From sequence record NC_024786.1: a DNA stretch of 64,000 bases. One strand, written 5' to 3'. The position numbers and the translations under genes are program-made. Every line of letters begins with the position of its first letter. Within the stretch, counting starts at the first letter, position 1. Below the pieces are notes generated by a model. It worked only from the letters and a program-made list of their open reading frames with translations. It did no database searches and was not told the origin of the DNA. Shown one piece after another: positions 25,582 to 27,825 of this stretch. The DNA is from Escherichia phage vB_EcoP_PhAPEC5.

Positions 25582-26332
25582 TCTGGTAGGTGGCTCAGAA
25601 GCTGCTGCTAGGTGTGGTAGTGTTTATAGTCCTGATGCTATTACTGGTCAGGATTATAGACGTGTCGGCTCCATACATAGCTTTTATCATCACTGTCATT
25701 ATCCTGTGGAAATGCAGTGGTAAACACGGTGGTGACAAGCCGCCAGAATAACAACAACCGAACCAGTGGGCTTTAATACTCTCCGAAGTCCATTGGTTCA
25801 ACCGGGGTTAATATGAACAAATTTACTATTCACTGGCTCAATGGAAAGGTTAGTTCTTTCATGGGTGGAGAACCTGCTGAAGGAAGCATTGAAAAAGAGT
25901 AGTTAATATCGTGAAGGGTTCTGTTAGAATCTTTTGAGATAGGAACTCCTATCATAACCTTTCTTAACTTAATCTTTGCCGTATGGCACTGACGCTAGGG
26001 GTGGCCCCCCATCCGTCAGACAGACTATTTTAAGAATGGGTTATCTCAGAAAATGTAAAGCAACATTCGGGTTAATCAATGGCCTCTCCCTATAGGGGCC
26101 ATTTCTGAATCTTAGGCTATATCCCAAAGGTTAGTATCTTTGGGATAAGGCTTCAGACCCCTTATCAAACTAACTGCTCAATGTTGAGTATATTAATTAA
26201 CCCAGCCCACTAAGGGGGCGGGAGTTTAATGCCGGTAAGCATAAGCCCATCCGACTACAACATCGAAGTGTTAGGTCTTACATGCAACATAGGGTATAAA
26301 GGGAGGACTCGTCCCCTCCCTCCTATTATGAG

Positions 26333-26418
26333 CCATCGGGGAGTACATTAGTTGATTAGCTGTGGAAGGTAGGCCGATGTCCACAAGCGTGGCCCAGAGC
26401 TAGTGTACTCCCCGATGG
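26333..26418. repeat. Perfect 15-bp inverted repeat (17 bp with one G-T pair) enclosing a 56-nt structured loop
   Basis: CCATCGGGGAGTACA (26333-26347) is the exact reverse complement of TGTACTCCCCGATGG (26404-26418); followed by TTTT. Confidence 0.85.
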
Positions 26419-26858
26419 TTTTCGTAGCGATTATGCGGTTTTTTAGAAATGAACCAATAACATAAATGCAAACGAAGAAGCGTATCTGATGGTCGCCTAA
26501 CAGCGTAACCTCAGTCAGGAGTGAGTCGTCCTGATTATCAAACGACCGTGGAGTTCTCCCGTCCATGTATTAGAAACGGGGGAGACAACAGGAAAGAGCA
26601 TTGGGTAATGTCATCCTTGGTTCGAAGTCGAAAGACATGCGGTAATGCCCAGCCCAAGTTCCAGTGCTCTTTCCGTTGTGACCAGCAAGACCATACAATT
26701 TACATAATAATCTTAACCGTAGTGTAGATTGATGGGGCTGGATGTGGGTTAACACATAAGAGTGAGTTGGTGCGACACCCCACAGCAAGCAACAAGTCCA
26801 GACGATATCTGAGTGACTATAAAAACAGATGGAGCCAGGTGGAATCCCTGGCAACTAT

Positions 26859-26924
26859 TCCGGTGTAGGTACTAGTGTCGTGCACGGCATGAGCATTCTG
26901 GTTCGAGTCCAGACGCCGGAACCA
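26859..26924 (+). ncRNA. tRNA-like element (T-arm, acceptor stem, discriminator and CCA) with truncated interior
   Basis: T-arm TCTGG-TTCGAGT-CCAGA; 7-bp acceptor pairing TCCGGTG / CGCCGGA; discriminator A then CCA; only 63 nt, D/anticodon arms do not fold canonically. Confidence 0.3.
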
Positions 26925-26926
26925 AT

Positions 26927-27050
26927 TACCAGTTGCACGAGATGGCTTGACATGTTCAAGTTTGGACTAAGTGTGACACCGCTAGATTGGAGAGCTGCTG
27001 CGGTAAGCTATAGACTCCAACCGGAGGTTCGAATCCTTCACTGGTAACCA
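26927..27050 (+). ncRNA. tRNA-like element with oversized interior (about 121 nt) ending in CCA
   Basis: T-arm GGAGG-TTCGAAT-CCTTC; acceptor TACCAGT / ACTGGTA; discriminator A and CCA; begins 2 nt after the preceding CCA; interior contains extra hairpins. Confidence 0.3.
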
Positions 27051-27164
27051 ATTAGAAGTAGCACTGGCTCATATTAGTGGAACTCGAACCCATTGAGCAG
27101 ACGAGATTAGCTAACTCTCAGTGCTACCCCTAATTGGAAGAATTAAGACGGGTCTGGTGAAATA

Positions 27165-27258
27165 GATGGGGTTCAATTCCCCCCAGTGGAGTAATCCACT
27201 AGCGTGCTTGGTGCACGAATAAGACTTAGTACTGGTGGTTCGATTCCATCCCCCGTTA
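27165..27258 (+). ncRNA. tRNA-like T-arm elements and hairpins
   Basis: TGGGG-TTCAATT-CCCCC hairpin, AGTGGA-GTAA-TCCACT hairpin, then T-arm GGTGG-TTCGATT-CCATC with acceptor-like CCCCGTT-A; no canonical cloverleaf found. Confidence 0.25.
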
Positions 27259-27452
27259 CCTGAAGTCGCCAGGTACTTATGGCAAACGGGTAGTAACGAA
27301 CTAGTCATTCGTCAAACGCCCACCCAATTATGAGTCAGCAAGAACGCCTTCACTTAAACTTAAACAAAAAAGCTTAACGCAATAATTATGTAGGGGTATG
27401 TAAGGATTGCGAAGAAGGAGCCAGTTAGAGCCTGGCATGACTCGCCCATTAT

Positions 27453-27526
27453 GTCCGCTTAGCTTAGACTGGGAAAGCAACCGACTAATAATCGGAAGGT
27501 CACTGGTTCAAATCCAGTAGTGGACA
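27453..27526 (+). tRNA. tRNA candidate (74 nt; anticodon loop CTAATAA, apparent anticodon AAT)
   Basis: Manual cloverleaf: acceptor GTCCGCT/AGTGGAC (7 bp, one G-T), U8, D-stem GCTT/AAGC with GG in D-loop, 4-bp anticodon stem CCGA/TCGG, 5-nt variable loop, T-arm ACTGG-TTCAAAT-CCAGT, discriminator A. Confidence 0.45.
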
Positions 27527-27756
27527 CCCATTCAGCAGTAACATAGTCCTGATTGCATAGCACTCTAAAGACAACACTGGTAAGACAGTCCAGTGGCTGC
27601 TAATGTATTGTTATTCCCCTCGACGGGAATTTCGCTAGTGAAGGTAACACTTAAAAATCCAAACCCACGTCTTACTACTATCGGGCTATCAACCCACGGT
27701 CGCTTAACCCTATAGTGGTAGTAGTTTGACGGCCTGCCTCGTTGACTGCGTTAAAG

Positions 27757-27797
27757 TCACTAAGTCCCTCAGAGCCGTCACTCTGGGGGACTTTTTT
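27757..27797 (+). terminator. Rho-independent terminator closing the structured region
   Basis: Stem TCCCTCAGAG / CTCTGGGGGA followed by TTTTTTATTT. Confidence 0.6.
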
Positions 27798-27825
27798 ATT
27801 TGAGCATTAATAATTGGATAATCAA

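Follow-up and report, generated by a model that had tools for sequence, protein, structure and literature searches.

We analysed a window of 64,000 nucleotides (nt) of the genome of Escherichia phage vB_EcoP_PhAPEC5 (sequence record NC_024786.1) and found that its positions 25,900-27,800 are an array of about 12 distinct RNA modules in one orientation, not one large RNA. All coordinates given here are positions in this window unless another genome is named, and all modules of the array lie on the + strand. We consider it likely that the array is a noncoding-RNA island built from exchangeable modules, probably transcribed as a polycistronic precursor that host RNases would cut into small RNAs acting on host translation. 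A reading made beforehand from the sequence alone had proposed a structured noncoding RNA with transfer RNA (tRNA)-like modules on this strand, ending at a terminator, and this proved correct; what it had suggested about the nature of that RNA is weighed below.

The modular organisation becomes apparent when the region is compared with other phages. It is 82-98% identical to Gamaleyavirus phages including PhAPEC7, G7C, EC1-UPM and UE-S5a, and in blast comparisons with four relatives whole blocks of the interior are absent: G7C is without 26335-27130 (800 nt), PhAPEC7 is without 26583-26918 (335 nt) and UE-S5a has a pseudo-tRNA in place of 26583-26795. Furthermore, sub-pieces of the island match other phages, where the matches fall in unannotated DNA. 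Kuraviruses match 26193-26417, Ackermannviridae and an Enterococcus phage match 26351-26398 (~90%), the siphovirus ZX4 matches both 26414-26504 and 26663-26797, Skatevirus Seszw_1 matches 26585-26680 (96%), N4 matches 26800-26927 (94%) and T4-like phages match 27163-27252. Since these phages are unrelated, the pieces must move between phage families, and the same modules are found in lambda, P1/P7, Felix O1-like, T1-like and Vi01-like phages, either downstream of sigma-70 promoters or within tRNA clusters. A comparison with relatives for compensatory base changes, as the sequence-only reading had recommended, detected such changes in non-tRNA modules across unrelated phage families.

The structural observations made from the sequence also held up. 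Every strong hairpin that had been listed is present (26110-26157, 26300-26321, 26333-26418 and 26555-26562/26576-26585), and when fifteen segments were folded and compared with dinucleotide shuffles, six had z-scores between -3.5 and -7.2. The count of at least five T-loop-like motifs was likewise borne out: GGTTCRANTCC occurs five times in the 64-kb window, always on the + strand and always within the 616 nt of 26900-27515, compared with 0.21 occurrences expected by shuffling and none of 100 shuffles reaching five.

Among the modules, the long-stem cassettes consist of about 20 base pairs (bp) of covarying stem around interchangeable interiors. In cassette B (26585-26680; z -3.84 for 26585-26683), stems ACAACAGGAAAGAGCAUUGG ... 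CCAGUGCUCUUUCCGUUGUG of the type found at the lambda RNA LPR2 enclose a 56-nt interior, the strands following the pattern ACAACAGGNAAGAGCA... / ...UGCUCUUUCCGUUGU over about 20 bp with a bulged A; this is the module that is 96% identical in Seszw_1. Its 3' arm, used as a search pattern, is present in 104 IMG/VR stretches, and between matching arms of this type we found at least twelve unrelated interiors, in modules of 75 to 115 nt. To score the stem, 58 stem pairs were aligned without gaps, each arm having been picked separately by sequence similarity and eight long-stem variants without the bulged A having been left out. In this alignment 87.7% of cells are paired versus 35-64% with the partner slid, and double-sided changes affect 10 of the 20 pairs (64 double-change cells versus 7-18 in the controls).

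The commonest version of this cassette, 75 nt long, is the sequence directly after the lambda terminator tR' (lambda 44788-44862; locus L161 489-563), a hairpin that partly overlaps the annotated orf-64. LPR2 is a ~63-nt, Hfq-bound RNA of the lambda lytic cycle, located next to 6S RNA and described by RNA interaction by ligation and sequencing (RIL-seq), and the published northern probe against it is complementary to lambda 44816-44850, within the 75-nt cassette (bioRxiv 10.1101/2024.10.31.621285). The lambda cassette is therefore the source of a discrete small RNA in vivo, one lacking about 6 nt of the complete hairpin at either end. Cassette B has the same stem sequences of about 20 bp as the lambda element, but the interiors are unrelated and not the same sequence (56 nt in cassette B, 35 nt in lambda), and cassette B sits in the RNA island of a virulent N4-like phage, whereas the lambda copy follows a Q-antiterminated terminator. 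RNase III processing sites are reportedly present in lambda late RNA, going by the title of a 1988 study by Daniels et al. that is cited in PMC7547250; from that title, the length of the stems and the size of LPR2, we infer that stems of about 20 bp are probably RNase III substrates.

Cassette A (26333-26418; z -7.24) has a 19-bp stem, with arms at 26333-26351 and 26400-26418 of 19 nt each that are 95% complementary, around a near-invariant 47-nt core (26351-26398) of sequence GAUUAGCUG.GGAAGG..GGCCGAU.UCC.C..AGCGUGGCCCAG. Copies of the core with ~90% identity are found in Ackermannviridae, a kuravirus, a KP8-like contig and an Enterococcus phage, and it is kept in Taipeivirus and Kuttervirus contigs in which the stem has been swapped for wholly different covarying ones. 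Double-sided changes are seen in 12 of the 14 outer-stem pairs, and the inner hairpin has two covarying pairs. The cassette has no Rfam match. In Ackermannviridae the core sits in tRNA regions (locus L005 2501-2548), apparently also in Enterococcus phage Efm 3-10, and a GGCC/GGCC pseudoknot pairing within it is possible. We rejected a hammerhead or pistol ribozyme for cassette A and an integron attC site for the cassettes, as the consensus positions are unconserved or lie within the covarying stem. Cassette C (27048-27137; z -5.48), detected as an inverted repeat, belongs to a second stem class, CCAAUUAGAAGUAGCACUG / CAGUGCUACCCCUAAUUGG; in the relative L150 this stem is kept with two compensatory pairs and the interior is different.

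Some cassettes elsewhere (loci L121, L047 and L163) stack a T-arm on a long terminal stem, as does the bacterial Y RNA YrlA; those of the window differ in being without a T-arm of the YrlA kind. The YrlA model RF02553 matches none of the island modules, and its sole weak match (24 bits, gathering score 69) overlaps the tRNA-Asn and tRNA-Thr genes of P7. A Y RNA reading of cassette B was discarded, since the match to the GNCGAANG motif is too short to count and the YrlA model finds nothing there.

A second group of modules resembles tRNAs at the 3' end. A T-arm and acceptor scan identified the tRNA-like RNA t1 (26859-26924), in which a 7-bp acceptor (UCCGGUG/CGCCGGA), a T-arm and A-CCA are joined to a 6-bp hairpin with a 4-nt loop replacing the D and anticodon arms, and t2 (26927-27050; 124 nt), which has a 7-bp acceptor (UACCAGU/ACUGGUA), 89 nt of internal hairpins, a T-arm and A-CCA. 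Both carry the 7-bp acceptor on a 5-bp T-stem, a UUCRANY loop, a discriminator and CCA. A third RNA of 116 nt (27147-27262; z -2.13) contains two T-arm-like hairpins and two more and ends in ACC. The interval from the acceptor 5' strand to the T-stem is 31 nt in t1, 89 nt in t2 and 80 nt in the 116-nt RNA, compared with about 42 nt in a tRNA. None of the three forms a canonical cloverleaf, is called by ARAGORN or is matched by the Rfam tRNA model at E<=10. As far as their sequences tell, the CCA-ending tRNA-like RNAs have no usable anticodon arm and would be unable to decode.

These RNAs, too, are conserved as structures. t1 is 94% identical in N4, in unannotated DNA, and in the KP8-like contig L182 its T-stem changes from UCUGG/CCAGA to GUUGG/CCAAC with the middle hairpin compensated as well. 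In UE-S5a a C-G pair of the t2 acceptor is changed to U-A, and a kuravirus has a similarly built RNA that reads UACAGGU..ACCUGUA-ACCA. In the T4-like phage VR25 the 116-nt RNA has its homolog in unannotated DNA that separates tRNA-Met from tRNA-Arg, with a hairpin stem CAUGC/GCAUG instead of CGUGC/GCACG. The VR25 copy (locus L009 1484-1593) has a putative acceptor AUGGCG/CGCUAU with a G3-U70 pair; as the copy in the window reads C3-G70 there, the VR25 pair may be chance. Identity of the 116-nt RNA with T4 rnaC/rnaD was rejected, as there is no sequence similarity, though the position is comparable.

The one canonical cloverleaf is tRNA-Ile with anticodon AAU (27452-27530), the only tRNA given by either ARAGORN or Rfam (62.4 bits), in agreement with the sequence-only reading. 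The leader upstream of it, from about 27374, is common to Skatevirus (L006 2735-2883 is homologous). An AAU anticodon for isoleucine is unusual for bacteria; ARAGORN finds seven tRNA-Ile(AAU) copies among the related loci. One homolog is at L006 2821-2897, and the related siphovirus contig L121 (3497-3574) has CAU in the same loop. The co-oriented tRNA and tRNA-like genes with T-arm-bearing 3' ends recall phage tRNA clusters such as that of T4 (rnaC/rnaD, species 1 and 2), as do the homing-endonuclease genes nearby and the 116-nt RNA homolog in the VR25 cluster. The island differs from the T4 cluster in having only one decoding tRNA and many more non-tRNA modules.

This likeness raises the possibility, already put forward from the sequence, that the region is a decaying tRNA gene cluster; its T-loops and hairpins would then be pseudogene debris, with tRNA-Ile alone working. 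Some fragments do fit this description. The T-arm tail AGTCCAGACG occurs twice, at 26795 and 26906; of a tRNA-Arg found whole in its relatives, the ZX4 island has just the truncated 3' end; the pseudo-tRNA of UE-S5a stands at the position of cassette B; and relatives annotate varied tRNAs here (Cys, Thr, Ala, Val, 'OTHER' and 'Pseudo'). Homing-endonuclease genes have inserted into such islands, an HNH gene in G7C and segB in the T4 tRNA cluster (locus L166 1754-2419). However, t1 and t2 retain perfect 7-bp acceptor stems followed by ACCA, the near-identity of t1 in N4 and its compensated helices in L182 are not what debris would show, and the tag domain described below, the cassettes and cassette A in particular are not tRNA-derived in form and covary across unrelated phage families. 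Decay thus accounts for individual fragments and not for the non-tRNA modules, where compensatory changes keep the helices, and as an explanation of the region we regard it as unlikely.

The module at 26414-26590, recognised from sub-threshold Rfam matches to transfer-messenger RNA (tmRNA) families, alignment and covariation, resembles the message part of a tmRNA, and we refer to it as the tag domain. Its 5' part consists of the segment GAUGGUUUUCGU, a hairpin at 26423-26437 and an A-rich linker. These are followed by a reading frame at 26468-26500, GCA AAC GAA GAA GCG UAU CUG AUG GUC GCC UAA, encoding ANEEAYLMVA and a stop, and by two pseudoknots, one formed by 26515-26520/26529-26534 and 26525-26528/26543-26546, the other by 26547-26551/26563-26567 and 26555-26562/26576-26585. 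No in-frame AUG, GUG or UUG lies between the nearest upstream stop and the GCA in the window and the homologs read. The GCA is preceded by AUAAAU in the window and by (A/G)UAAAU in every aligned sequence, so that, as in tmRNA, positions -5 and -4 are always U and A. In E. coli tmRNA the corresponding frame-setting nucleotides are U85/A86 (cf. PMC2481249).

Collecting IMG/VR loci that match the start of the tag, together with GenBank phage matches, gave 23 distinct sequences. In every one of the 23, ten sense codons, no more and no fewer, precede a TAA, TGA or TAG stop, which implies translation; the 15 encoded peptides have the form A-N-[DE]-x-x-x-[LKM]-[AM]-[AV]-A, among them ANEEAYLMVA, ANDDVVLMAA, ANEEMYLAVA, ANDNVFLAVA and ANDDLMMAAA. 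Conservation does not extend to the other two frames, and an alternative AUG frame over the tag (MQTKKRI and stop) was dismissed because neither its length nor its sequence is conserved. Six DNA variants of ANDDVVLMAA differ by synonymous changes only, those read varying at GTA/GTT, CTG/TTG and GCG/GCA/GCC/GCT. Codon-level constraint therefore acts on the tag. In the alignment of the 23 sequences the stop codon lies in the loop of a hairpin with two covarying pairs, and two H-type pseudoknots come after it, the first with 3+3 covarying pairs and the second with one (stem by stem, 3, 3, 1 and 2); over all helices of the domain, 87.3% of cells are paired versus 33-45% in slid controls, with 68 double-change cells versus 6-14.

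The tag domain is present in 771 of 50,697 phage records, including P1/P7, Felix O1-like, Vi01-like, T1-like and N4-like phages, and in 660 of 5,426 complete E. coli genomes (12%), mostly on P1-like plasmids, and in both sets it almost always lacks annotation; most P1-like plasmids in RefSeq E. coli carry it, unannotated. In the E. coli copies the annotation over the domain is nothing or 'hypothetical protein', with no RNA feature from NCBI. A sigma-70 consensus promoter lies directly upstream in ZX4-like siphoviruses, the Felix O1-like phage HY02 and jedunavirus KLPPOU148. In P7 (locus L184 1186-1372) the domain is downstream of the C1-controlled Op(ban) operators and upstream of tRNA-Asn and tRNA-Thr, the P1/P7 ban-operon leader carrying the tag ANDDLMMAAA and a long-stem cassette ahead of these tRNAs. 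Cassettes that precede tag domains have the base CUAUC.../...GAUAG instead of ACAAC.../...GUUGU. tRNA-Arg(UCU) and tRNA-Met/Ile(CAU) are often found within a few hundred nt 3' of tag domains (HY02, locus L183; L116; L127; other T1-like phages). These tRNAs decode AGA and AUA, rare codons where ribosomes stall.

Does this make the module a tmRNA? Like tmRNA, it has a GCA resume codon preceded by the invariant U and A, a startless short open reading frame (ORF) with an A-N-D/E...A-A/V-A tag, the stop in a hairpin loop and pseudoknots downstream, and weak but recurrent matches to the tmRNA-family models cover its non-tRNA part. Testing tmRNA among the Rfam families, one of the checks suggested from the sequence, was worthwhile. 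At the gathering threshold Rfam finds tRNA only in the whole window, and ARAGORN and Rfam report nothing above threshold other than tRNA-Ile; at E<=10 over 25400-28000 the only additions are sub-threshold tmRNA-family matches, with no riboswitches. In the window a permissive scan gave tmRNA_permuted (27 bits) and the beta_tmRNA tag region over 26339-26547, and nine other phages gave similar weak matches; in all, the scores are 22-34 bits for tmRNA_permuted (gathering score 47), 24 for alpha_tmRNA (50), 17-21 for beta_tmRNA (84) and 16 for tmRNA (47). Unlike tmRNA, the tag domain has no tRNA-like domain, that is, neither a G3:U70 acceptor nor a helix-joined T-arm and CCA; it has nested hairpins where tmRNA has pseudoknot 1 and two downstream pseudoknots against three in E. 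coli; and it measures about 175 nt and is flanked by long-stem cassettes or tRNAs. On sequence grounds it thus resembles the message part of a tmRNA without qualifying as one.

Several ways of completing it into a tmRNA were rejected. A 'tmRNA' called by ARAGORN in L121 is spurious, with an ordinary tRNA as its 3' end and a nonsense tag, and the 3' end CGCGGGA-ACCA has no fully paired 5' partner and by its spacing appears to be the end of a real tRNA-Arg. A permuted tmRNA is disfavoured because the hairpin before the tag contains neither a conserved interior nor an in-register T-arm or CCA and a promoter directly precedes many copies, and a one-piece tmRNA because the CAGAUAG complement in the interior of the 81-nt ZX4 cassette does not covary in other phages. 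In the T-arm and acceptor scan of 60 tag loci, only ordinary tRNAs and self-contained tRNA-like units were seen.

One tentative explanation, which we hold to be possible though well short of probable, is that the tag domain represents a new kind of split tmRNA, a template without its own tRNA-like domain that borrows one from elsewhere. Its best-conserved 5' segment, (GA)UAGUUUUCGU(C), could pair without mismatch over 8-11 nt with nt 97-106 of E. coli tmRNA, which are host tag codons 3-6. The window carries the 8-nt core GUUUUCGU, and almost every one of the 22 variants examined retains at least GUUUUCG. In such a version (GA)UAGUUUUCGU would dock on the host tmRNA at these codons, and the host alanyl-tRNA-like domain with SmpB would deliver the phage template, rewriting the tag, here to AANEEAYLMVA. 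A complement of at least 10 nt arises in 3% of shuffles, so the complementarity to the host tag codons is only suggestive.

The same pairing could instead mean that the domain regulates host tmRNA as an antisense RNA or decoy, blocking or diverting trans-translation by occupying the ssrA tag codons. The conservation of the core would suit this, as would the fact that the phage's own tag sequences would not pair with the 5' segment, and Hfq-bound small RNAs are known from the same kind of locus in lambda. Besides the frequency of such complements in shuffles, it has to contend with an internal helix formed by the same 5' segment, and it leaves the strict 10-codon frame, the conserved stop and the synonymous changes unexplained. 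We therefore think a purely antisense role quite improbable.

A single large RNA of the GOLLD/ROOL type, working as one molecule with embedded tRNA-like domains, had also been proposed from the sequence. GOLLD and ROOL are large phage-associated RNAs found beside tRNAs, and the dense structure and the placement of all elements on one strand, from the end of a gene to a single strong terminator, are compatible with such an RNA. Neither at the gathering threshold in the window nor at E<=10 over 25400-28000, however, is there an Rfam match to GOLLD, ROOL, HEARO or group I/II introns, or in the latter search to any large-RNA family; long-range inverted repeats that would tie the ends together do not go beyond chance-level matches of 12-16 nt; and each block is found alone in other phages, with its own promoter or tRNA neighbours. 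The block-wise presence and absence among relatives and the recurrence of single blocks elsewhere therefore rule out a single large RNA for practical purposes, and we give it very little credence. Least credible of all is the third proposal, an element working in cis for replication or packaging, or on a wider view a recombination hotspot, with hairpins acting as DNA, for which the position between replication and late gene modules, the many inverted repeats and the DNA-level activity seen in a nearby homing-endonuclease insertion might speak, but which fails on the tolerance of G-U pairs in the helices (indicating RNA rather than DNA), the codon-level constraint on the tag, the lack of any skew or composition break in the region and the occurrence of the same modules after sigma-70 promoters or in tRNA clusters, at very different genome positions of phages with unrelated replication and packaging systems.

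We return to the reading of the region as an island of exchangeable modules. The array would be transcribed rightward as one or a few precursors ending at the intrinsic terminator at 27762-27793, where a 13-bp stem followed by a T-run confirms the end predicted from the sequence; the PhAPEC7 and G7C records likewise annotate a terminator at the homologous sites. Host RNase III would then cut the long stems, and RNase P with 3' trimming would free the tRNA-like units. The resulting small stable RNAs may have the host translation machinery as their target, with codon supply, the rescue of ribosomes or tagging, and perhaps decoying, as their roles. The island would have originated by horizontal exchange of modules among unrelated enterobacterial phages, with recombination possibly joining modules at their conserved stems and tRNA-like ends; such joints would account for the patchwork and the occasional truncated remnants.

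Several points weigh against this reading. Some pieces are clearly remnants, namely the T-arm tail repeat and the truncated tRNA-Arg in ZX4, and for four segments (26195-26332, 26501-26590 when only nested pairs are folded, 26927-27050 and 27263-27400) the folding does not surpass that of shuffles (z -0.9 to +0.5). The covariation counts use related sequences, so that their independence is overstated. All tmRNA-family scores (16-34 bits) are under the gathering scores (47-84), and the tag domain is without the tRNA-like features that a tmRNA needs: apart from the one spurious call, ARAGORN finds no tmRNA in the window and more than 180 related loci, and no G3:U70 acceptor stem lies near the tag in the 60 scanned loci. 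Finally, for this phage co-transcription and processing, RNase III cleavage of the long stems included, are presumed from the terminator and from other phages.

The remaining modules are smaller. Three stable hairpin modules lie at the beginning of the island (25954-26044, 26078-26103 and 26114-26153; z -3.45 for 25950-26060 and -4.76 for 26060-26175), and in a blastn comparison with the kuravirus island (locus L008) much of 25954-26153 has no counterpart. They are followed by a block shared with kuraviruses (26193-26332; 79% identity to Escherichia phage 1-6bf, L008 2495-2727), which includes the GGGAGG/CCUCCC hairpin at 26300-26321. Module M4 (26681-26794), common to phage ZX4 and 81% identical to L007 2758-2891, includes a hairpin with a GGUUAA loop, and the stem of this hairpin has three compensatory pair differences (AUGUG/CACAU versus GAAUG/CAUUC). 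Module M5 (26795-26855) consists of the hairpins AGUC-CAGA..UCUG-GACU and GCCAGG-UGGAAUC-CCUGGC; it is found in N4, a kuravirus, the KP8-like contig and prophage-like contigs, where it precedes a tRNA-like RNA or a long-stem cassette, and in its stem AGNC/GNCU a U-A pair is changed to C-G or A-U. The 3' tail (27531-27800), found by terminator scan, comprises hairpins, the terminator and its T-run (z -4.35 for 27660-27800). STnc100 reaches its Rfam gathering score, with 47 bits, in the Taipeivirus Klebsiella phage UPM 2146 (L005 871-1084), and partial sub-threshold matches are seen in terminator-proximal segments of two Gamaleyavirus relatives, that of EC1-UPM corresponding to the tail of the island at about 27715-27800.

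In the records of relatives the island lies between the homologs of N4 gp47 and gp48, downstream of the gene for a single-stranded DNA-binding protein, and N4 itself has at this location a 1.5-kb gap that is ORF-free and has no annotated gene. In the window, a 3577-amino-acid ORF on the minus strand (28995-39728) has the size of an N4-type virion RNA polymerase. The sequence-only reading had described 25582-27800 as ORF-poor, with no convincing ORF over 60 amino acids in 2.2 kb. This stands for 25,900-27,800: frames of up to 94 amino acids exist within the region in a mechanical ORF list, and six of 65-94 amino acids that were tested have no match among PHROG families. The 5' edge is different; there a 53-amino-acid ORF (25590-25751, + strand) probably encodes a small membrane protein (phrog_19025, E 5.4e-9) and, being coding, lies outside the RNA island. 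A 29-amino-acid ORF at 25813-25902 (+ strand) is of uncertain coding status, judged from its sequence and the annotations of relatives; at the same start position PhAPEC7 has a 56-amino-acid coding sequence and G7C the HNH homing-endonuclease gene (L004 1732-2229). With these two small ORFs at the edge, the truly ORF-free part is about 25,900-27,800. Just 3' of them, at the start of the island, is a sigma-70-like promoter (25903-25930, TTAATA-16-TAGAAT, extended -10 with TG upstream); the count of such sites in the scanned region around it is not above chance.

Phage tRNA clusters, phage tmRNAs and lambda LPR2 were already known, and ARAGORN tmRNAs have been counted in 402 of 18,146 phage genomes, given as 2.3% (PMC9004378). 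In limited full-text searches of the searchable literature we found no description of an orphan tag domain, nor of the cassette architecture that links LPR2 to the islands of N4-like, P1-like, T1-like and Vi01-like phages. The tag domain is an unnamed RNA family, below Rfam thresholds and unseen by ARAGORN, in textbook phages such as P1/P7 and in therapy-relevant groups (Felix O1-like, Vi01-like and N4-like phages), and it raises the question of how a message domain alone, without a tRNA-like domain, could be used. Furthermore, LPR2, the gp47-gp48 gap of N4 and the unannotated DNA of phage tRNA clusters come together as one shared pool of exchangeable RNA cassettes, which suggests that conserved double-stranded stems double as processing signals and recombination joints. 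If the tag domain is indeed a split tmRNA, hundreds of enterobacterial phages, including P1, Felix O1-like, Vi01-like, T1-like and N4-like phages, would reprogram ribosome rescue. On a practical level, such regions are now annotated as 'hypothetical protein', pseudo-tRNAs or nothing, and their recognition bears on the annotation and engineering of therapeutic phages.

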